In this document: in pieces, positions 1-43,719 of the stretch | Layout: every line of letters begins with the position of its first letter | Position numbering within the stretch: position 1 is the first letter of the stretch | Origin: a virus | Lineage: Duplodnaviria; Heunggongvirae; Uroviricota; Caudoviricetes | DNA: 46,437 nt | Direction: 5' to 3' (one strand) | Virus record (IMG/VR): IMGVR_UViG_2925903241_000005 | Location: 1 to 46,437 of that record | Notes under the pieces: model-generated | Database searches by the model: none | The model's input: the letters and a program-made list of their open reading frames with translations, nothing else | Told to the model about the DNA's origin: nothing | Program-made: the position numbers and the translations under genes

Positions 1-207
1 ATGCCAAACGGCGCTGTGGACGCGTTAAAGGAAGAATTAACTCGACGCATCAGTAAGCGTTATGACGATGTAGAGGTGATCGTAAAAGCCACCAGCAACG
101 ATGGCCTTTCTGTTACACGCACTGCCGATAAAGATTCAGCTAAAACTTTTGTTCAGGAGACTCTGAAAGATACCTGGGAATCTGCTGACGAGTGGTTTGT
201 TCACTAA
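1..207 (+). CDS. dinI: DinI-family protein, C-terminal part (5' end outside window)
   Basis: Translation ends ...[16 protein letters not shown], matching the conserved C-terminus of DinI-like SOS proteins; ORF runs off the window start. Confidence 0.6.
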
Positions 208-275
208 TTAACACGTAAAATCGGTAACGGCTTGAAATCATTAAATACTCGCCCTATCGAAAGCTCACCAGCCAG

Positions 276-309
276 CCGCAACACGTTCTTACATATGACG
301 TGTCTGCGG
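276..309. repeat. imperfect palindromic element, copy 1 (CCGCAACACGT-N11-ACGTGTCTGCGG)
   Basis: Inverted repeat read directly; a second copy with about 31 of 37 matching positions is at 2743..2776. Confidence 0.5.
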
Positions 310-323
310 TTTCAACTCCACCA

Positions 324-357
324 GCCCACCAATCATGATTGGGCTTTTTCGTTTTTC
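324..357 (+). terminator. putative rho-independent terminator downstream of dinI-like gene
   Basis: GC-containing hairpin (gcccaccaatcat/gattgggc) followed by a T-run (ctttttcgttttt). Confidence 0.4.
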
Positions 358-486
358 TTCACCTGCAAGCAAACCGTTGTATCATGGCGGAATGAAGATG
401 AGCTAGGAATAATCTTATGAATCAGCTCAATATTCATATAAAAACATTTCGAACTTTGGTGTACAAAACTACATAGGGATAACTTT

Positions 487-1689
487 ATGTCTCTTCGTTT
501 CAGACAAACCTTTACTTTATTTCCTGGCGTTCGACTCAACATTGGCAAGCGTGGAATAAGTGCAAGCATTGGCATGCCTGGCGCAACTGTCAATGTTGGT
601 AAAAAAGGGGTTAGAGCAACTGTCGGATTACCGGGCACAGGCTTATCTTATACTACACCTACCTTGCCCTATGATGATGGATACTCAGTTACCAATCCAT
701 TAAATCCAGCCCCTACAGAACCTCATTTGGGGTCTGGGTCATCTCCAGAAAACACACCATCGAACGCTAAAATATATATGCCTGTAGCTGGCATGAATGA
801 AATATCCAGCGCTTCGGTAGAAGTCCTTACAAGTACCTCCCTTTTACCTTTACGAGATTTGATTGCTAAAGCACGAGAACAAAGAGCAGAGATAAAAGCA
901 GATCTTCAAGAGGCTCTTGCCGAAGAATCAAAACAAAAAAGCGAGCTGGCTCGACGCAAATCAAGTCTATTCCGTTGGTTTTACAAACGACGCATCGCAG
1001 AACTTGAGACACTACTCCCCCTAACCCAAGCTGAGATATCTCGCCTAGTTTCATGGGAAGACAGCACAAAAATAGCCATAACATTCGAGAGCAGTGATGC
1101 TTCACAGCGCGCATATGCAGCGATGGTCCATGCATTTGATATGTTAAAATCGAGTGTCAAAAAATGGGATATTACTGCAGATAAAGCTACAGACCAGTTT
1201 GCTGAAAGAACATTAGCAACCCGGTCTGTTAATCGTCACCCAGTTACCTTTGATTTTAGTTCAACGGATCTCATTCAATTTACAGGGCGTGCGATGAGGT
1301 TTGAAAATGCAAATGGAGACGATATTTTGCTTTATCCTGGAGTTGCAGTCATACCACGAGCCGATGGAGCATTCGCTCTGATTGATTTACGCGAATTACA
1401 AATTAGTTCAGAATATCTAAGATTCCATGAGGAAGAAGGTGTTCCCAGTGACTCACGCATAGATGGTTATACATGGGCGAAAACGAATAAGAATGGCTCA
1501 CCAGACCGTCGTTTTAAAGACAACTACCAAATCCCTATTTGCATTTATGGAAATATTACTTTCCATTCTCAAACAGGGGTAACTGAAGAATATATGGTAT
1601 CAAATGCAGATGCCGCGCACGCCTTTGCTGAGGCAGTAAAACGCTATCAGATTTCACTCACAGAAACAGAAGCGTTGGTACAAGCCTAA
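487..1689 (+). CDS. DUF4236-domain protein (N-terminal NIGKRGIS-type motif) with uncharacterised C-terminal domain
   Basis: 400-aa ORF; N-terminus FPGVRLNIGKRGISASIGMPG...VGLPGTGLSY resembles the DUF4236 signature from memory; sits outside the tail-fibre end of the prophage. Confidence 0.45.
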   Translation: MSLRFRQTFTLFPGVRLNIGKRGISASIGMPGATVNVGKKGVRATVGLPGTGLSYTTPTLPYDDGYSVTNPLNPAPTEPHLGSGSSPENTPSNAKIYMPVAGMNEISSASVEVLTSTSLLPLRDLIAKAREQRAEIKADLQEALAEESKQKSELARRKSSLFRWFYKRRIAELETLLPLTQAEISRLVSWEDSTKIAITFESSDASQRAYAAMVHAFDMLKSSVKKWDITADKATDQFAERTLATRSVNRHPVTFDFSSTDLIQFTGRAMRFENANGDDILLYPGVAVIPRADGAFALIDLRELQISSEYLRFHEEEGVPSDSRIDGYTWAKTNKNGSPDRRFKDNYQIPICIYGNITFHSQTGVTEEYMVSNADAAHAFAEAVKRYQISLTETEALVQA

Positions 1690-1885
1690 TTTATCGCCGA
1701 TATGGGGACGAATCGTAGGTTAAAACCCCTCGAACAAAAAAACCTTAAGAACCAGACTATTATGGCTGGTTCTTATACGGAGGATTTGTTATTGTACAAC
1801 TCTTCTATCTGGTATATTTACGGATAGAACTGTTCGGGCTACTCAATCCTTTTTAAGTACAAATGAACAGATAGAAATAGTTATA

Positions 1886-2688
1886 TTGCAAGGAGCTATC
1901 ATGCACACTGAGTATATATGGCGATATCTTGACATAGAGAAATTCTCTATGTTACTCGAACAAAATGCTTTATTTTTTTGCTCAGCAAAAAATTTTGAAG
2001 ATCCGTTCGAAGGTGAATTTGCTTGGGGACATACTGGCTATAAAAAATTCATTGAGACACAGGAAAAACTATGCGCTACTCATGGTGCCGGCATGGACTT
2101 AGAGCCTTTCATGGCATTCAATTTAAAGACACCTAAGGAAATAAGCGAGAGGACATATATAAGTTGCTGGCATTGTAACGAACATGAATCTGAAGCTATG
2201 TGGAAGCTGTATTGTAAAAACCCCGCTAAAGGCGTTGTCATAAAATCAAAGAAAAAAACCTCCAAAGCCAACTTGAAAATAATAATCTAAACAAACTACA
2301 ATTAAAACACGTAAAATACGTCAAAAATTTCTGGATAAAACAATACAATCCAGAATCAGATGTATTCTTTAACAAGAGACCATCTTTCGAACACGAAAAA
2401 GAGTTTAGAGCTATTTTTCAAGAGAATACCTTTAACACTCCACCTGTAAAGGGAAAACTAGTCCCTGTATCTCTTAATAATCTGTTGGAAGAAATAAGGA
2501 TTTCACCTTTCGCAGATAAGGATTTCAAAAATGAAGTTTTACAAATTTCAAAAAAATATGGACTAGATCTAAAAGTCAAAAACTCTGAAATTGAAATGCA
2601 TCCCATCATGCATGTTGAGGAAGAAATAATTGCAGAAGGCCCCAATTGGTATCAGTCAAAAATCAGGTTGGCAATACGTGATGCTTAA
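1886..2688 (+). pseudogene. DUF2971-family gene interrupted by a frameshift in an A7 tract (near 2252..2258)
   Basis: Frame of 1886..2290 carries DUF2971-like motifs (FFCSAKNFEDPFEGEF; CWHCNEHESEAMWKLYCKNPAKGVV). Reading frame -1 is open from about 2230 to 2688 and continues a sensible protein (..LQSQLENNNLNKLQLKHVKYVKNFWIKQYNPE..). The two frames meet at 'aaagaaaaaaacc'. Confidence 0.55.
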
Positions 2689-2742
2689 TCTTATATTGAA
2701 GTTTTTTATGTCTCCTGCTGAAACTAGCTAAAATTTACCAAG

Positions 2743-2776
2743 CCGCAGCACGTTATTGCATACAACGTGTATGCGG
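2743..2776. repeat. imperfect palindromic element, copy 2 (CCGCAGCACGT-N11-ACGTGTATGCGG)
   Basis: Same element as 276..309; lies just downstream of the tail-fibre stop and may also act as its terminator hairpin. Confidence 0.5.
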
Positions 2777-2974
2777 CGTATCTCAAAACGATTACTCCAT
2801 AACAGGGACAGCAGGCCACTCAATATCCGGTGCTACTGATGTATCAACACGGTTCAGCAACACCCGATACTTCTTCCAGGCTTCCAGCAACAAGGTTTCT
2901 TCCTCCGTTGCGATTTCCAGCTCAACAACAGTCTGAACGTACCGGGAACAGCCTCCTTCAGAGCTTGAAGGATA

Positions 2975-5900
2975 TCAATGTTCGCTTCCTGTTAACTGCC
3001 GGACAAGTGCAACCAGTTCGCTTACCTGATTTTCCAGAGTGCTGATCCGGGTGCCTGCTGTTGCCAGATTTTGACGTAGCGTTGTGTTTTCCTCTTCCAG
3101 CGCGGTAACGCGATCATCTGTTTCACGGGCGACCTGAACAAGTAAACCCGTCACGGCGGCGTAGTCAACATTAAGATAGCGCGTTTCTTCGCGTAGCTTG
3201 TTGCCGTCAACGGTCGGACCTTGCAACTCTTCACCATAATGAGTAAACGATCCCACAGCTTCTGGTATCGCCTCCATTACTTCCTGTGCAATAACGCCAG
3301 CATAAGGCAGGCCGTTTTCCTTGAGCGTGTAGGTGTAACCGTTCATTTTGCGGATTGCTTTCGTCGCGTCGCTGATAACGCGAATATCGTCTTTAAGGTC
3401 GCGGTCTGATGACTGATTCAGCGTTGTGCAATTAATAGCGCCATTTACATCAAACAACTGGCCTGCTGGTGTTCTTTGCGCATAAAACAGATACGCAGCA
3501 GACGTTGCAACCTCAAAAACGTTTTGTCGATCACTTGACCCCCAGACCGCGATGCTAACTGGCAGTTCTGAATTACCTGAATTAAGTAAAGCAAAACGAT
3601 TGCCAGTCCCTGTTTGTTTTCTAATTACTAAATCGGCAGTTGAGTTAACCTCATCTTTGTTGATGGTTAGCGCCTGCGCTGTAGCACCGTTAACAGTGCC
3701 ACTTAGTAGTTGAACCGCTCCATCATCGCCATTTAACAGCACTTGAGCGCTGCTTCTGTGGTTTTTCAGGAACAACTTTTTGCCTGTGCTTTCTGATGTG
3801 CCTACCGACCACGCCGAATTGGTTCCAGTGCTATCAACACCACGAACGGTACAATTCATGCTGCCATAATCTGACGTACTTCCAAGCACATCAATCCGCC
3901 CGCCACCTAATTTTGATGGAGTCGTCGAGGTTAACGACCTGACGGTTACATCCTGATTCCATCCTGAAACAACTACCTGACTCCACTCCGTCCAGTTTCC
4001 ATTGACAACAAAGCGAACGTATATGCGTTTTGTGTCGCTGCCAATCAGCGTTTGCATGATCGCATAATCTGAACCCGTAGTTTTACGAGTAGATTCTACA
4101 CGTAGCAAAAAGTTACCGCTTACGCCGTCAGGCTTATTGGTAATATATGCACCACCTGCAACAGTTTTGCATTGATAGTATTTAACAGATCCAGCCACTG
4201 TATTAGCAATGATCAAGTCGTTTAAATCAATAGTCTTGTTGTCAATGGTTTCCGGCTCGATAGATCCCGCCATACCTGCGTTAAATGTGGCAAAGTCAGA
4301 AAAGGTTGTTTTACCGCCTACCGTCACCCCGCTATCGAGTTTTGCTTGTGTGATTACTTTGCTGTTTTTTGTGTGGTCAGAATAACTACCAAAATACAAA
4401 TCACCGTCACCAGCTATACCCAGGTATTTTTGATCAACATCATCAACCTTAAACCCAATGGACAAGTTTTTAATTGTGTTGTTGCTCGTTAAAACCAAAG
4501 GCGTATGCTGAGATCCTTTGATGCTTACCGTAGTGTTATCGGAACTGGTGCTTGTGTTTGCAAATTCTGCGGTGGCTGCGCTGATTTTGTAAGTTATTTT
4601 TAGATTGCGGGCCTCAACCCTCCCGTCGTGGCGAACAATAAAATCACCACTTGATTCACCTTTTGTGTTTTTCGCCCTGATGTGGATTTCGCCAAGTGAT
4701 TCGTTGTTTTCAGGCGACCAAACAACGCCGCGCTCGCTTCCGTCGTTGTTCATGAACCACAGATGAGCGGTTCCTTTTGCTGATTTTAGCCTGATAGATG
4801 GCGTTTCTTTCAATATATCAAGATCACCAGACATAACATCGCCGGATTTTTTCACCTGCGCATCGTTAGTTACGTTGCCAAGTCCAACATCCGATTTCGA
4901 CGGCTTGTTTGCCGAGCCGTATAGCTCATTGATGCTAAAAGTCCCGTTGTTAAGCCGGGCATCGTTGCCGGCATAGATCTTAATCTTCGCGGTTGAGTAG
5001 TCGATATTGATCGCTGACCACGTATCGCCGCACCGCGAGAATATACCAGAACCGTGGCTATAAATGGTCGCCGTGCTTCCGGTCGGCTTATCACCGCGCC
5101 AGAAATGACCACCTTTGTCACGCAGAGCTTTTAAGATCTCTACATCGCTCATCTTGCCGTTTGTTGATATCCCGCTACCGCCAAGACCGAAAGCGCCTGT
5201 AAGCATAGCATTAGAAAGACCCAAATCTGCTTTAGTCGGCTTGTTTAACTGGTCGTAAATCCTTACAACGGGGCTTTCAACATATCCAGAAGGCGCGGCG
5301 GTTTGCTTAACAAATCCGTCTGGAATGTATAATTCCGGGCGTGCCGTCTGCGCCAGCACCGCAACCTTTGCGCCGTTGATAAATGCGCGCTGGAAGGCCC
5401 AAACCTCAATAAAGCCGTCACCTTTAACCAGGCCGTAACGCATCTGGTTGTTATCGGTCAGCCCGGTTGACCCTAAGCGGCGTATACTCAGATGACGAGA
5501 AACATTATCCGCACTAAGCAAAGAAGGCAGACCGCGCGCCGAGATCTCGATAAAGTCAATGTTTCCGTAAGGGGAGCCGTAGTTACCGGCATTAGTAACC
5601 ATTAGCGTTACATGGCAATTGCCGCTTCCGGGATCGGAAAGTTTCGCGATCTTTATGTAAAAAGACTCATTACCAGTAACAACGGGCCAATCGTATTGCG
5701 TCATCGGGCTGACGAGTCCCCCGACCTTGTCGAGATATTCTTTCGCCTTGTTCTCTGACGCTTTAGCGTTGGTTTCGCTGACCTTTGCTGCTGCCTCACT
5801 ATTTTTCGCGTTGGTTTCTGATTTTTTGGCTGCTGTCGCGGAGTTTGCCGATGCAGTTTGTGAGTCTGCTGCCGCCTGTGCGCTGTTATCCGCATTCGTC

Positions 5901-6739
5901 TCAGACGTTTTTGCGGCCTTCGCGGAATTTCCTGCTGCCGTTGCCGAGGAAGCTGCACTGCCGGCGCTCGAGGCAGCGCTCGTTTCTGATGATTTTGCCG
6001 CCACTTTTGAAGCCGACGCATCCCGGGCTGAGGTGGCAGCTTCTGACGCTTTCGTGGTCGCGGTGGATGCAGATGTGGCCGCAGATTTTTGTGATGCTGC
6101 GGCATTCATTTCCGACGTTTTCGCTGCACCGGCACTGGTGGCTGCCGCGCTTTTTGAAGACTCTGCGGCGGCAGCACTTTTTGATGCTTCAGTGGCCTTT
6201 GTTGATGCCGTTCCTGCGCTGGAAGACGCTGACTGAGCCGACGACGCGGCCTGTCCGGCTGACGTGCTGGCTGCACGTGCTGAGCCTGCAGCATCAGTCG
6301 CACGGGTTGCCGCCTCACGGGCTGATGTGCTGGCATCGCTGGCTGACTTCTTCGCGGCTGCCGTGTTCTGTGCCACCGCGGACGCGTTACGCGCCACCTC
6401 TTCCACCATCAGTTCAAAACGGCGCAGTGCCTCAGGACGGGCATCATCCTCCGTCATGGCACCGAGAAAATCATTCAGCGTACCGGGTCGGGAATCTTCA
6501 TACACGGTGATGGTCCCGGCATGTGACGGCGGGAATCCTTCCACCAACAGAATAACGCTGTACTGACCGTACTCAACGTCCATGCTGTAACGCCCGGCTT
6601 CATCCGGATTTTCTGAGGCCAGCGTGTTCACCACCACCGTGGTACTGTTACGTTTTGCTTTCAGCTGGATTGTGCAGTTCTGTACCGGTTTTCCTGTGCC
6701 GTCTTTCAGTACACCTGAAATCTTTACTGCCATATTCAC
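2975..6739 (-). CDS. stf: side tail fibre protein: lambda Stf-like N-terminus, long Ala/Ser/Thr-rich repeat region, C-terminal S74 intramolecular-chaperone domain
   Basis: N-terminus MAVKISGVLKDGTGKPVQNCTIQLKA... matches lambda Stf; C-terminus ...DGNKLREETRYLNVDYAAVTGLLVQVARE..TALEEENTTLRQ resembles the endosialidase-chaperone domain; 1254 aa versus about 774 aa for lambda Stf. Confidence 0.85.
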   Translation of the reverse strand: MNMAVKISGVLKDGTGKPVQNCTIQLKAKRNSTTVVVNTLASENPDEAGRYSMDVEYGQYSVILLVEGFPPSHAGTITVYEDSRPGTLNDFLGAMTEDDARPEALRRFELMVEEVARNASAVAQNTAAAKKSASDASTSAREAATRATDAAGSARAASTSAGQAASSAQSASSSAGTASTKATEASKSAAAAESSKSAAATSAGAAKTSEMNAAASQKSAATSASTATTKASEAATSARDASASKVAAKSSETSAASSAGSAASSATAAGNSAKAAKTSETNADNSAQAAADSQTASANSATAAKKSETNAKNSEAAAKVSETNAKASENKAKEYLDKVGGLVSPMTQYDWPVVTGNESFYIKIAKLSDPGSGNCHVTLMVTNAGNYGSPYGNIDFIEISARGLPSLLSADNVSRHLSIRRLGSTGLTDNNQMRYGLVKGDGFIEVWAFQRAFINGAKVAVLAQTARPELYIPDGFVKQTAAPSGYVESPVVRIYDQLNKPTKADLGLSNAMLTGAFGLGGSGISTNGKMSDVEILKALRDKGGHFWRGDKPTGSTATIYSHGSGIFSRCGDTWSAINIDYSTAKIKIYAGNDARLNNGTFSINELYGSANKPSKSDVGLGNVTNDAQVKKSGDVMSGDLDILKETPSIRLKSAKGTAHLWFMNNDGSERGVVWSPENNESLGEIHIRAKNTKGESSGDFIVRHDGRVEARNLKITYKISAATAEFANTSTSSDNTTVSIKGSQHTPLVLTSNNTIKNLSIGFKVDDVDQKYLGIAGDGDLYFGSYSDHTKNSKVITQAKLDSGVTVGGKTTFSDFATFNAGMAGSIEPETIDNKTIDLNDLIIANTVAGSVKYYQCKTVAGGAYITNKPDGVSGNFLLRVESTRKTTGSDYAIMQTLIGSDTKRIYVRFVVNGNWTEWSQVVVSGWNQDVTVRSLTSTTPSKLGGGRIDVLGSTSDYGSMNCTVRGVDSTGTNSAWSVGTSESTGKKLFLKNHRSSAQVLLNGDDGAVQLLSGTVNGATAQALTINKDEVNSTADLVIRKQTGTGNRFALLNSGNSELPVSIAVWGSSDRQNVFEVATSAAYLFYAQRTPAGQLFDVNGAINCTTLNQSSDRDLKDDIRVISDATKAIRKMNGYTYTLKENGLPYAGVIAQEVMEAIPEAVGSFTHYGEELQGPTVDGNKLREETRYLNVDYAAVTGLLVQVARETDDRVTALEEENTTLRQNLATAGTRISTLENQVSELVALVRQLTGSEH

Positions 6740-6744
6740 CCCAC

Positions 6745-6770
6745 AAAAAAGCCCGCCTGAACCGGCGGGC
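6745..6770 (-). terminator. rho-independent terminator between lom and stf
   Basis: Minus-strand hairpin GCCCGCC-N6-GGCGGGC followed by TTTTTT. Confidence 0.5.
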
Positions 6771-6797
6771 TGTCATAACACTGTGTTACCTGGCTAA

Positions 6798-7397
6798 TCA
6801 GAATTTATAACCGACACCCACGATGAAACCGTCAGTGCGCCAGTCACCACTGCCGGAGCCTTCATAAGCAATATCAATGGCCACGGATTCGGTCGGGTTA
6901 AACTGCACGCCAGCCCCCCACGCCAGAGACGTGTTGCTGTGGCGACCGTCATCACTTCCGGTCAGCACATCGTGCTTTTTCCCCTTGTTGTCAGTTACGC
7001 GGAGATAATCCCCGGAGAAAGTCGACACACGGCTGTAAGCCACACCCGCCATCGCATACGCGCTGAACCATTCATTCACGCGCACAGACGGCCCCGCCAT
7101 TACGCTGAACCAGCGGTTACGAACGGAATCTTCATGCCAGCGGGTATCGCTGTAACGGGTCAGCTGGCGATTCTTGTCTCCTGCATAGCTGAATGACGTC
7201 ACCAGCCCCAGCGTATCCGTAAACTCATAACGGTATTTCACGTTAATCCCGTTCAGATCATCACTGCCGGGGACGTTCGTCGAGGCATGAAGATACCCCG
7301 CGCTCAGCGTGGACTGATGTTCAGACGCCCATGCAGGCGCACCGGATACGGCCAGACAAATGGCTGCGGACAAAATTGCTGCACAAACTTTACGCAT
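6798..7397 (-). CDS. lom: outer membrane protein Lom (Ail/Lom family)
   Basis: Signal peptide plus Ail/Lom beta-barrel sequence ending ...GVGYKF; position after J as in lambda. Confidence 0.85.
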   Translation of the reverse strand: MRKVCAAILSAAICLAVSGAPAWASEHQSTLSAGYLHASTNVPGSDDLNGINVKYRYEFTDTLGLVTSFSYAGDKNRQLTRYSDTRWHEDSVRNRWFSVMAGPSVRVNEWFSAYAMAGVAYSRVSTFSGDYLRVTDNKGKKHDVLTGSDDGRHSNTSLAWGAGVQFNPTESVAIDIAYEGSGSGDWRTDGFIVGVGYKF

Positions 7398-7467
7398 AAT
7401 TACCTCTCGCTTTTCTGCAATAAAAAAGGCGTCATTCCTGACGCCCTTTATTGGGGTTATAAATATT

Positions 7468-10400
7468 TCAACGAATACTGATGCCGGAAGCGGCTTTTTT
7501 GGTCACAATCACCGTACAGTCGGTGATATTGCCTGCCCCCTGATTGCCTTTCTGGAAAATCTTAAACTCCAGAGTGACGCTTCCCCTGCCACTCGGCATA
7601 TCAATAACTGCACTGTAACTACCGGGAATGGCCCCTTTAGTTTCTCTGGATGCGATTAATACGCCGTTTTTGCGAACTTCAAAACCATAACCCGTGTATC
7701 TTGTACCTCCCGGGTTATTACCACTTCCCGGATCGCTATACGCTATTCCGTTAAAGATAATGGGCGGAATAATGATTTGACGGTCAAAGTTATGATCATC
7801 GCTGATGGTGACTGTAACCGTCCCGTTTGGTGTTTCCGTATTACCCCACGTACCAGCCTGTTTCGGGAATGATTTGGATACAGCTTTAACGAAGTCACCT
7901 CTGACCTGAGTCGCCTCCAGCATGCCCTTAATCGTACAGTTTTCATTTACCGTGACATTGTTGAGCGTCCCGGCGTTCGCATTCACACTGCCACTGATAT
8001 CCGCATTTTTAGCGGTCAGCTTTCCGTCCGGTGTCAGGGAAAATGCCGGCGGATTTCCACCGCTGGTAATGGTGGGAGCCGTCAGGCGTTTCAGGAACAC
8101 GTCATTCATGAATATCTGATCACCCTGACCAACAAACATCGGTTTTGTGTTGCCATTTGCAGGATTAATCATCGCAATCCTGTCCGCCGCCAGCAGCACC
8201 TGACTCTGCATGCCGTCAGGGGTGTTCTCAATACCGGCACCGATACCCGCAATATAAAGGCGTCCGTCCTGCATCTGCTGCAGCTTCACTGCCCACATGC
8301 TGTTCAGGTTATTATTTGTATCAACCTGAACCTTCTGTATCTGCTGGATCGCTGCACTCTGGTCTTCCAGTTTCTTATTGACGGTCTGTGTTATTTCATT
8401 GCTGACATCCGTTATGGACGTCCTGATTTCAGTCAGGTCAGGCGCAAGCTGACCGTTATCAATCTGCGTCCACAGCTCCTGAGCCAGATGGGTTTTCCCT
8501 ATCTCGCCTTTGAAAAAATCCAGATAGCCTGATGCATCATCACTCGGCTGACCGACAGCCTCCACGAATGCCGATTTGCCAACGGTGTTCACACTGCGAA
8601 CGTAAAAATAATAATCATGGCCCGGTTTGATATTGATACTGGCGGCTATCCAGTACAGTGCCGTACCAAGATAACGCGCGCTGGTTTCAACCTGCCTGAT
8701 ATCCGCAATCCGTTTTTCCGAGAACCAGAACTCAAACTGTACCGTCGGGTCATAAACCGCAAGATGCGGCGTGGCGGTTATCTGAAAATAGCCCGGCGTC
8801 AGCTCAATCCGCGACGGCGCTGCCGGTGCGGCAATCCGGAACGATACCGACGCCGGATCGCCCTGCTGCCCCCACGCATTTACTGCCCGGACTGTCAGCC
8901 TGTAGTTCCCCAGCGCCAGTTGCGTGAAGCGGTATGTGGTTTCCGTCGTCCGGGCCGTGCTGACCAGCCGCTCACTGCCGTCATCCGCTGCCACGGTCAG
9001 GCGAAGCAGGAAGCTCACGCCCTTCACCACCTTCGGCGTGTCCCAGCGCGCCAGCACCTGGTATTCCCCGCTGTCTGCGGTGACTTCTGCGGTCAGGTGC
9101 TGCACCGCTGGCGGCGTGACACCATTTACCGTGCCGCTCTGGTCGCCGTCAAAGTGCGCCCCGTTATCCACGATGGCCTCTTTTTCCGGTACATGCTGCA
9201 CGGCGGTGATGGCATACGTGCCGTCGTCGTTCTCACGGATACTCACGCAGCGGAACAGGCGCTGGCGCAACGTCGGCAGCTTCAGCCCCCATACGCTGTA
9301 TTCAGCAACGCCGTCAGGAACACGGCTCACTTTCACCTTCACGCCGTCGGTGACGGACTGAACCTCCACGCTGACCGGACTCCCCTGCCCGTCAACCAGG
9401 CTTATCAGCGTGGTGCCGGAAGATGGCAGCGTGATTTCACGGTCGAGCGTCAGCGTCCGGGTCTGGCTGTTTACCGCCAGCACGCGCCCGCCGGTGCGGA
9501 TACCGGCATAGTCATCATCGCAGATTTCAATGACATCGCCCGGTACATGGCGAAGCCCTTCGGCACCCACGCTGAAGTCCACGGTCTGCGTTTCCAGCAG
9601 TTCTGTTTTAATCAGCCACAGCCCGGCGCGGTGTGCCTGCCCCCGGCTGGTACAGCCAAAGGCATCCATCTTCGTGACGTTACGACCGTAACGGGCAATG
9701 GCCTGCGTGTCCTCCACAAGCTCTGTCGCCGTCTCCCAGCCGTTATCCGGGTCAATCCAGTTCACCTCAACGGCATTATGGCGGTCCTTCAGGGCGCTGA
9801 AGCTGTAGCGGAACGGCGCGCCATCATCCGGCATCACCACATTACTGCGGTTATAGGTCCACACCTTATCTGATGGTCGGTCCTGCACGAACGTCAGCGT
9901 CTGCCCGTTCCATACCGGCATACAGCGCATCGCCGAGCAGAAATCACTGAGAACATCCCACGCCTTACGCTGTGTGGTCAGCCAGGCATTACAGGTGATG
10001 CGCGGCTCCGTGCCGCCAAAACCGTCCGGCACCGACTGGTCGCAGTACTGGCCGATGACATACAGCGCCCATTTATCCACATCTGCCGCACCAAGACGTT
10101 TACCCATGCCGTAGCGCGGGTGGGTCAGCATATCCCACAGACACCAGGCCATGTTGTTGCTGTATGCTGGCTTAAACGTTCCGTCCCAGATACCGCTGTA
10201 TTGCCGCGTCTGCGGGTTATAGTTCGACGGCACCTGCAGAATACGCCCGCGAAGATGATAATTACGGCTCACCTGCTGGCTGCCGAACTGCTCCGAATCC
10301 ACCTGTACGCCGACCAGTGCCGTGTTCGGGTAGCACTGTTTCACATCGATGATTTCGGTGTATGACGACCAGAGCGTTTTGTTCTGCAGCTGGTCTGTGG

Positions 10401-42328: not shown

Positions 42329-42538
42329 ATGGCAAAACTAATGAAAGCGAGCCAATGGGGACGCCGTGAATTCTCTAATGGCTCAATTCCTGACAACCGA
42401 ACGATAAAACGCTGGGTCGAGAACGGTCTGCTCATGGGGCGTATCGTGGACGGTTCTGTTTTTGTCTGCGAAACAGAAAAATGGGGAGTCGACTCAATGG
42501 TTAGTCAAGCTGTTCGCAAGTTAATAAATGAGGGATGA
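42329..42538 (+). CDS. xis: excisionase (Xis-like)
   Basis: About 69 aa from ATG after a GGAG RBS; ..RTIKRWVENGLLMGRIVDGSVFVCE.. resembles excisionase winged-helix; stop overlaps the int start (ATGA). Confidence 0.6.
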   Translation: MAKLMKASQWGRREFSNGSIPDNRTIKRWVENGLLMGRIVDGSVFVCETEKWGVDSMVSQAVRKLINEG

Positions 42539-43719
42539 CCATGGCGGCAAGGCCACGTAAAAAAGAATACAGACATCTTCCTGATTATCTGGTTTTTGAT
42601 AAAGATCGAGGTGTTTATAAATTCACACTTATTACCGGAAAAAAGAAAAATATAGGTAAGGATCGGGCAATAGCCGTTGCAATCGCCAGAGAGTACAACC
42701 TGAGGATGCGATCAGAATTATACCCATCAGTGGATAATCTTATTAGAGAATCTGGCGGGGTCACCGGAGAAGCAAAACCATTTGCTGAACATGTCGATCA
42801 CATAATGGCCAGAATTATCGAAGACGAACGACCTTCCCAGAGTACCTTAGATGACTGGAAAAATGACGCTCTACGCGTAAAAGCGTTTTTCGTAAATGTT
42901 CCGGCATGCGATATCGAACTTGAACACGTTAATGCCTACATCAACAAATATCATGCCAGCGCATCCGCAAATGTGCAGAACAGAAAGGTCAGCTTTCTTA
43001 AAAAGTTGTTCTCTTATGCGGTCGATGAATCACTAATGCAGGATAACCCGGCCATCAGAAAAAAAATGCGTAGGACTGATGAGAAGAAAAGACGGCGCCT
43101 GTCACTCGAACATTTTATAGCTATCAGGCAGGCCGCTGCACCATGGTTAAGAACAGCAATGGACCTAGCATTGCAGACTACACATGCACGACTCGAAGTA
43201 TCGCGAATCCGTTACTCAATTCGCGAACCTAAAGACGGTTTATGTGGATGTGTTTGGTTCGAACAACCACAAAATGGCATATATGGTACACTATACATCC
43301 ATAGGCAAAAAGTACAAAAAAAGGAGGCATCACATGTTGCAATACCAATTGGTGAAGAATTGAAACGGATAATTGACAATAGCCGTGACAATGTGGCCAG
43401 TCCCTTTGTCGTTCATAGAATCCCAGAACGGCATGTTAAACGCAGTAAAGAGGTTTCGCACCCAACTCAAGTTGCACCAGATTATTTGAGTCGGTCATTC
43501 TCTTCCGTGCGAGACAAACTCGGACTATGCAATCATCTAGCAATGGAACAAAGACCTACATTCCATGAAATAAGAGCTTTGGCAGCTCACCTATTTGATA
43601 AACAAGGGATTGATCCGCAGGGACGAATGGCACATAGCGATGCGAAATCTACTAAAATTTATACTAAAAATCATATAGATTGGATTGTTGTCCCTCATGG
43701 AGAAATTAAAACCGGTTAG
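42535..43719 (+). CDS. int: tyrosine integrase (lambda Int family)
   Basis: 394 aa; ..PTFHEIRALAAHLF.. and ..AHSDAKSTKIYTKNH.. catalytic-region motifs; position at the prophage end after xis. Confidence 0.9.
   Translation: MTMAARPRKKEYRHLPDYLVFDKDRGVYKFTLITGKKKNIGKDRAIAVAIAREYNLRMRSELYPSVDNLIRESGGVTGEAKPFAEHVDHIMARIIEDERPSQSTLDDWKNDALRVKAFFVNVPACDIELEHVNAYINKYHASASANVQNRKVSFLKKLFSYAVDESLMQDNPAIRKKMRRTDEKKRRRLSLEHFIAIRQAAAPWLRTAMDLALQTTHARLEVSRIRYSIREPKDGLCGCVWFEQPQNGIYGTLYIHRQKVQKKEASHVAIPIGEELKRIIDNSRDNVASPFVVHRIPERHVKRSKEVSHPTQVAPDYLSRSFSSVRDKLGLCNHLAMEQRPTFHEIRALAAHLFDKQGIDPQGRMAHSDAKSTKIYTKNHIDWIVVPHGEIKTG

Follow-up and report, generated by a model that had tools for sequence, protein, structure and literature searches.

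A gene for a 400-amino-acid (aa) protein with an N-terminal DUF4236 domain lies near one end of a lambdoid Escherichia coli prophage (IMG/VR record IMGVR_UViG_2925903241_000005, RefSeq NZ_CP043942; we call the whole stretch of 46,437 nt that was analysed the window), at positions 487-1689 of the plus strand, and it is very likely a solitary moron of a large family without known function. With slightly better than even confidence, we read window positions 341-1777 as a self-contained, mobile single-gene moron, whose product would have a cytoplasmic core near the inner membrane and would serve as a host-modifying factor in the lysogen. The locus is not a discovery, because the gene (ATG start; WP_001351450.1) is already in the databases as a “DUF4236 domain-containing protein”. 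The parts of the putative module are as follows.

341-486 (+): 5′ region of the module, conserved; homology to a Klebsiella prophage starts at 341
487-1689 (+): coding sequence of the 400-aa DUF4236 protein (open reading frame, Pfam, PHROG, RefSeq, dN/dS)
1702-1742 (+): degenerate copy of a tRNA-Pro(GGG) 3′ end, directly past the stop codon, at the 3′ edge of the module
1747-1774 (+): terminator-type hairpin, AAGAACCAG / CTGGTTCTT, which ends the module (read from the sequence)

A putative mobile module beyond the tail-fibre genes

The genes at this end of the prophage stand in NZ_CP043942 in the order yejM, tRNA-Pro, dinI (frameshifted), WP_001351450.1, a short hypothetical open reading frame (ORF), a tail-fibre-assembly remnant, tail fibre, lom, and J. 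The 487-1689 gene is on the opposite strand from the tail-fibre genes, beyond and convergent to them; the preliminary description of this DNA was right to place it outside the phage structural genes. In mEp460, a single hairpin, followed by a T-run as in any standard intrinsic terminator, is all that separates dinI from the tail-fibre gene, and PhiR63_1 has different cargo at the same dinI/tail-fibre junction. The G+C content (GC) is 0.31-0.44 across positions 300-2700 versus 0.46-0.62 in the tail genes; the gene itself has a GC of 43% and a GC at third codon positions (GC3) of 31%. Two marks of a moron, i.e., presence or absence at the same junction among related phages and a base composition atypical of the surrounding phage genes, are both found at this locus.

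Lambdoid phages offer several examples of cargo at the att-proximal “b-region” end: lom, bor, cor, and the effector loci downstream of tail-fibre genes. Like lambdoid morons, the module is an extra unit with promoter- and terminator-like sites between conserved genes, has an atypical composition, and is patchily present; it differs from them in that its product is unrelated to characterised moron products, and in that the gene is also common as a lone chromosomal gene outside phages.

Comparison with other genomes revealed two nested units. At about 98% identity, window positions 210-2937 recur in three more E. coli prophages, which are integrated elsewhere (near icd, near yegL-ibsA, and at tRNA-Thr/proA) and have different genes upstream; a 2.7-kb two-module cassette bounded by terminator hairpins (the second module being a DUF2971 gene, described below) thus moves between E. 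coli prophages. The homology to the Klebsiella prophage is limited to 341-1777 (88.6%), which takes in the gene with the 145 nt before it and about 90 nt after it, and these limits mark 341-1777 as a probable single-gene module; in Klebsiella it lies between ssrA and an S74 tail-fibre gene. The Edwardsiella gene, encoded on the other strand, adjoins phage tRNAs and has the Q antiterminator on one side and the holin/lysis genes on the other, which is where the stx genes are found on maps of Stx phages. In Serratia, Paracoccus, and Phaeobacter, the homologue is a lone chromosomal gene.

Among the full-length copies in IMG/VR, 27 out of 35 are at most 4.2 kb from the end of a viral contig (in 11 of them the gene is the terminal one), and others are found beside a Q antiterminator. 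The gene is present in 121 of 5,426 complete E. coli genomes (about 2%), always on the chromosome; it is intact in 120 of the 121, and 120 copies share at least 99% identity. The empty mEp460 site, the low GC, the opposite strand, the varied accessory sites, and the IMG/VR copies near contig ends together bear out the earlier view of the gene as a distal moron.

The genes directly upstream of the cassette differ among the other E. coli prophages (L017:2699-4555, L018:2364-4425, and L019:1395-4327). This upstream cargo includes DUF3800, an S1 peptidase matching defence-type protease models, a PDC-S64-like protein, and hypothetical proteins; the PDC-S64-like and defence-type protease genes occur just upstream of the cassette in one prophage. 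By this pattern, the DNA distal to the tail-fibre genes may be a hotspot for variable cargo.

The 5′ region holds a promoter-like TTCACC-16-TATCAT at 358-385 (9 of 12 matches, not above shuffle expectation) and a weak Shine-Dalgarno sequence, AGGGA, and Rfam found no structured RNA in it; the layout is consistent with a module that may be transcribed autonomously. At the other edge, we aligned 1702-1742 with proL of the same genome, beside which the window’s own prophage is inserted; in the copy at the Klebsiella locus (L005:9230-9280), every aligned position equals the E. coli proL 3′ end. The segment looks like a fossil att core that would have travelled with the module; no second tRNA-Pro att core was found at the integrase end of the window. 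The Klebsiella version of the 1747-1774 hairpin has a T-run after it, and the Klebsiella homology stops at 1777.

The 400-aa protein and its conservation

The ORF is as the preliminary description had quoted it, and the DUF4236-type N-terminus reported there is confirmed by Pfam: DUF4236 (PF14020) matches aa 3-56 over the full profile (E=7.1e-21; 74.9 bits against a cut-off of 27). PHROG 17982 covers the protein from end to end (E=3.2e-193; aa 1-400 against positions 1-390 of a 390-position profile). Both are labels without function: Pfam covers, above threshold, only the N-terminal 55 residues, and PHROG 17982 is annotated “unknown function”. No strong PHROG match is to a family with a known function, and the sole named match is a weak one to “tail fiber protein” (E=0.0085, aa 7-94). 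No model in Pfam, NCBIfam, or PADLOC matches aa 60-400; a search of BFVD with the 400-aa protein returned nothing at E≤0.001, and profile searches of PDB with full-length and domain alignments returned nothing below E=0.15, hence no sequence relative. The domain and structure searches that the preliminary description had called for thus end in PHROG 17982, without significant matches in BFVD or sequence relatives in PDB, and the kind of evidence that it had named as speaking against it, i.e., homology to a characterised phage structural or housekeeping protein, did not turn up in PHROG, BFVD, or PDB. Its unassigned C-terminal domain of about 200 aa remains without a model and is now described as a helical hairpin plus a PH-like domain belonging to a very large family. 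In order after DUF4236, the protein has a variable Pro-rich linker, a conserved motif, a helical hairpin of about 70 residues, and a 207-aa globular domain (pLDDT, predicted local distance difference test).

493-654 (+), aa 3-56: DUF4236 domain, a Gly-rich three-fold beta repeat (Pfam; strands predicted at low pLDDT)
658-774 (+), aa 58-96: linker, acidic and Pro-rich, the only poorly conserved segment (alignment, composition)
775-849 (+), aa 97-121: conserved motif YMP.AGMNEISSASVEVLTSTSLLP, with invariant or near-invariant columns in two alignments
850-1065 (+), aa 122-193: antiparallel helical hairpin
1066-1686 (+), aa 194-400: globular domain, a PH-like beta sandwich closed by a long C-terminal helix

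The DUF4236 head is strongly cationic (+8, with eight basic residues and zero acidic ones, and an isoelectric point of 12), and the mean net charge of this segment across 51 family members is +6.8. Since the head is basic and has no acidic residues, we infer that it may bind a polyanion. The motif at aa 97-121 has the family-wide consensus EI.SA....LTS..L and a pLDDT below 50 in the predicted structure; the fold of the globular domain is predicted as PH-like with a pLDDT of 95. Several polar residues are invariant in the family (WD 227-228, R241, R250, N274, E315, D322, E367, and S372), as is a loop at aa 334-350, NK(D/N)GSPDRRF..NYQIP, and we take the invariant polar residues to point to a specific ligand or partner site.

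Comparison with the Klebsiella, Serratia, and Edwardsiella orthologues gave ratios of nonsynonymous to synonymous substitution (dN/dS) of 0.07-0.12, a pattern of strong purifying selection that marks the gene as functional. The homologues in Paracoccus, Phaeobacter, and Sedimentitalea share 67-68% identity over the full length, and synonymous sites between E. coli and Paracoccus are saturated (proportion of synonymous differences, pS, 0.94), which in such a comparison points to long-term constraint rather than to recent transfer. By our own comparison, the conservation is at about housekeeping level, and yet the gene behaves as mobile prophage cargo; the two together suggest a universal target in the bacterial cell.

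The wider family

With aa 111-400 as the query, HMMER, run exhaustively, matched 2,906 representative clusters (defined at 50% identity) at E≤1e-3, 1,616 of them at E≤1e-10. When the species-representative genome set was scanned with a strict peptide pattern, 248 stretches were seen to contain relatives; they belong to Alpha- and Betaproteobacteria, Acidobacteriota, Verrucomicrobia, Nitrospirota, Chloroflexi, Gemmatimonadota, Myxococcota, Planctomycetota, and Bacteroidota. Among non-pathogens of soil and water, the family is widespread. Its architecture is constant: a DUF4236 beta-repeat, a flexible linker, a Ser/Thr/Leu motif, a helical hairpin, and a PH-like domain. The part from aa 97 to 400 (about 2,900 clusters) has no Pfam model, solved structure, or publication, and our literature search on DUF4236, the RefSeq accession, and PDC-S31 (the PADLOC model that matches the neighbouring DUF2971 protein) found no functional study. 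This large unmodelled family, together with its recruitment by prophages, makes the protein a reasonable, not an urgent, candidate for experiment.

The long relatives begin directly with the DUF4236 repeat, and 32 out of 64 carry SH3_3 (three carry PG_binding_1) at the C-terminal end; between the core and these domains there is a hydrophobic helix, then a Pro/Ala-rich linker. Since a transmembrane helix separates the core from the wall-binding domain, the conserved core would be cytoplasmic and the SH3 or peptidoglycan-binding domain outside, in the periplasm. By its domain content, the window protein appears to be an anchorless form of the family core.

The domain profile search returned mostly “short” homologues. 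Both of the short calls that we checked (L020:6700-7000 and L023:6650-7000) have a mis-called start, with an in-frame DUF4236 head upstream of it, and in Burkholderia cepacia (L021:6583-7768) a frameshift breaks the homologue's gene in two. Since distant homologues are often called from an internal codon, database entries “without DUF4236” cannot be relied on. With the DUF4236 head as the sole query, short fragments were all that came back. Among isolated phages, full-length homologues (32% identity) are confined to two Microcystis phages, one of them Mea-Yong924-1 (L016:5067-6140), with the gene directly after that for the large terminase.

Gene neighbourhood

We compared the flanking ORFs all against all at 80 loci from 80 species. 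No flanking family was common to more than five loci, i.e., the neighbourhood analysis proposed in the preliminary description turned up no conserved partner gene across the 80 species; the protein therefore works alone. The five-locus maximum is one Azospirillum-type group (L045-L047, L060, and L061; about 4968-9989), in which the family member starts 12 nt past the gene for a 1,673-aa superfamily 1 (SF1) helicase (AAA_11/AAA_12) fused to an MTES_1575/DUF559 nuclease domain, the only recurrent neighbour and found in this group alone. The 141 immediate neighbours match 104 different Pfam families, mostly housekeeping. A defence-flavoured context (DUF2971/PDC-S31, PDC-S64, and the defence-type protease) is local to the E. 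coli cassette, and a defence role is suggested from this cassette context alone, not family-wide.

Proposed role and alternatives

The host-modifying, single-gene moron that we slightly favour would work as follows. The lambdoid prophage, which lies next to tRNA-Pro and yejM, would carry the module as cargo at its att-proximal end, and in the lysogen the gene would be expressed from a promoter of its own, with a product that modifies the host. The conserved core would be cytoplasmic and act next to the inner membrane, with the window protein presumably a soluble or peripheral version of it. Its DUF4236 head would bind a polyanion (anionic lipid or nucleic acid), the PH-like domain would bind a highly conserved cellular ligand or protein, and the helical hairpin would join the head and the PH-like site, and may mediate oligomerisation. 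The most plausible pay-off, which is the weakest step, would be a lysogen protected from other phages or from envelope stress. Domain composition and anchored relatives lead us to propose a cytoplasmic, membrane-proximal binder, with somewhat less than even confidence; an anti-phage role seems rather improbable to us. We also considered a broader version, in which the family would be a new stand-alone class linking a conserved cytoplasmic target to the membrane or wall, with a cationic beta-repeat head under a PH-like sensor and no nuclease, NADase, or pore-former module, and in which prophages would have recruited the soluble form for exclusion or defence; this is distinctly unlikely.

Several results weigh against the favoured explanation. 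The promoter and terminator sites are at consensus level and no more frequent than in shuffled sequences, and tRNA adjacency is at about the estimated chance level. Large phage genomes (137-357 kb; Klebsiella and Brevundimonas) have DUF4236 heads too, and so the domain is not specific to lysogeny. The 400-aa protein has no recognisable effector or enzyme domain, and neither it nor six distant relatives have a match in NCBIfam; it has no transmembrane helix, its membrane proximity being extrapolated from relatives. PADLOC-DB v2 returned nothing at E≤1 for the window protein, nor at E≤0.01 for six distant relatives, and among the 141 neighbours from about 80 species there is no enrichment of defence genes, with scattered generic PADLOC matches only; by gene context, the family as a whole does not seem to reside in defence islands.

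The PH-like fold invites comparison with bacterial PH proteins, which have PH and helical-hairpin elements and form rings (PMC2817789). Their PHb genes are found in the lysogeny modules of some phages, and they have been linked to envelope stress and, for some PHb proteins, to the submembrane fraction (PMC2817789). PHb (PF08000; structure 3b77 from Exiguobacterium, with a PH domain and a helical-hairpin arm) is like our protein in its PH-like sandwich, C-terminal helix, and hairpin. Membership in bacterial PH families is not supported, because none of their Pfam families is among the matches at E≤1 and the likeness of the globular domain to PHb is a weak fold similarity score.

Two alternatives concern the role of the protein. 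One is a cell-envelope or architecture factor captured by prophages: the family would link a cytoplasmic target with the wall or membrane, and in the lysogen the soluble version would modulate this pathway, e.g., the timing of lysis or the tolerance of envelope stress. Among the long relatives, half join the core, by way of a transmembrane helix and a Pro-rich linker, to SH3_3/SH3_4 or PG_binding_1, most family members are lone chromosomal genes amid housekeeping genes, the strong conservation suggests a conserved cellular partner, and bacterial PH proteins are tied to the submembrane fraction and envelope stress (PMC2817789); but the window protein itself has neither a membrane anchor nor a wall-binding domain, envelope genes do not recur beside the family, and the PHb link is that weak fold similarity, so we regard this as rather unlikely. 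The other is a single-gene anti-phage protein acting in abortive infection or superinfection exclusion, with a PH-like domain that would sense a phage or stress cue and a cationic head acting on membrane or DNA. It would fit a variable cargo site by the tail-fibre genes that is shared with DUF2971/PDC-S31 (a family with a tested antiphage member; PMC11381338) and with other cargo matching PDC-S64 and a defence-type protease, the patchy presence in about 2% of E. coli genomes, and the helicase-nuclease of 1,673 aa that precedes the gene in Azospirillum. The PADLOC match and a known effector domain are missing, however, the neighbours in about 80 species are overwhelmingly housekeeping without enrichment of defence, and 67-68% identity between alphaproteobacterial and gammaproteobacterial homologues is, in our judgement, atypical of fast-evolving defence sensors; we consider this alternative unlikely. 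The candidate defence genes at the E. coli cargo site make the gene a cheap candidate for phage-challenge screens, and a defence or envelope role, if true, would give both DUF4236 and a large domain without a model their function.

An accessory role in phage structure or assembly, e.g., that of a tail-fibre chaperone or virion protein, would account for the position next to tail-fibre genes in E. coli and Klebsiella, for the 32% identical homologue that follows the large terminase gene in Mea-Yong924-1, and for the weak PHROG “tail fiber protein” match; yet the gene is convergent to the tail genes with terminator-type hairpins on both sides, missing from sibling phages, and a lone chromosomal gene in many non-prophage contexts, and BFVD and PDB gave no structural match, all of which leaves this very improbable. 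The least probable reading that we weighed is that of a remnant in decay or of a secreted virulence effector like those that prophages of enterohaemorrhagic E. coli encode downstream of their tail-fibre genes: the AT-rich DNA at the prophage end and the frameshifted or truncated neighbours (dinI, DUF2971, and tfa) would agree with it, but decay is refuted by the selection analysis (dN/dS of 0.07-0.12), with an ORF intact in 120 of 121 genomes, and the wide occurrence of the family in soil and aquatic non-pathogens speaks against an effector. No N-terminal signal peptide was obvious by eye in the window protein or the long relatives (no predictor was run).

Neighbouring genes and layout of the prophage end

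Around the module, the end of the prophage is laid out as follows.

1-207 (+): 3′ part of a dinI-like gene (Pfam DinI, E=6.9e-20; PHROG 189); the window starts inside the gene
274-311: hairpin copy 1, dinI side, terminator-type, with the T-run truncated in the window (RNAfold, -18.6 kcal/mol)
1901-2688 (+): DUF2971 gene (ADP-ribosyltransferase-like, PADLOC PDC-S31), inactivated; a separate module of the E. coli cassette
2742-2777: hairpin copy 2, tail-fibre side, terminator-type (RNAfold, -19.0 kcal/mol; aligned with copy 1 and mEp460)
2792-2926 (-): remnant of the tail-fibre assembly gene (RefSeq); the right edge of the shared cassette is 2937

The neighbour that the preliminary description had called a DUF2971 pseudogene is one: the ORFs at 1886-2290 and 2485-2688 are two halves of a single DUF2971 gene, which, compared with the intact allele of other strains, has lost 1 nt from an A-run near 2251 and with it the reading frame. 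The repaired protein of 262 aa matches Pfam DUF2971 (E=2.4e-6) and PADLOC PDC-S31 (E=1e-21), and an intact allele (246 aa) is found in other E. coli prophages. Aristaios, whose antiphage activity has been tested, belongs to the DUF2971 family (PMC11381338), the members of which are predicted to resemble ADP-ribosyltransferases (PMC11381338; PMC12522546). The likeness to these single-gene antiphage proteins is that of the neighbour at 1901-2688, not of the DUF4236 protein, and it is limited by the fact that the window’s copy is frameshifted. DUF2971 and DUF4236 genes occur together in the four E. coli prophage contexts that we examined and are unlinked outside E. coli, which makes them independent modules; a two-gene system was rejected, as the pairing is found only in E. 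coli and the Klebsiella nucleotide homology ends at 1777, between the two genes.

The preliminary description also placed both genes between two copies of a palindrome. They do lie between two such copies, at 274-311 and 2742-2777, which are imperfect, diverged hairpins of the terminator type; about 29 of 36 positions are identical by a count on the two sequences. In mEp460 and PhiR63_1, the hairpin of copy 1, there with a T-run after it, likewise stands past dinI and before the tail-fibre gene. We considered whether the hairpins are target-site duplications and rejected this: about 7 of 36 positions differ, and the same hairpin is the ordinary dinI/tail-fibre terminator where the insert is absent (mEp460 and PhiR63_1). 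The dinI-like gene, frameshifted according to RefSeq and near tRNA-Pro and yejM, is the last conserved phage gene ahead of the cargo.

Several genes at the att-proximal end of the prophage are damaged (dinI, DUF2971, and tfa). At the other end, a second, intact DUF2971 protein (318 aa, WP_106493932.1) is encoded at 43857-44819 (reverse strand), just past the prophage integrase (42535-43719); beyond it are an integrase fragment, two hypothetical genes, and then yejO, and this region may be what is left of an older element that had used this site. A match to Rfam IS009, a putative E. coli small RNA family, at 2835-3035 (reverse strand; 91.6 bits, E=8e-21, below the gathering score of 117) shares sequence with the remnant of the tail-fibre assembly gene and with the tail-fibre gene at its 3′ end. 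The side tail-fibre region at 2975-6739 is annotated as split or partial genes in RefSeq, yet it is a single ORF of 1,254 aa in the window.

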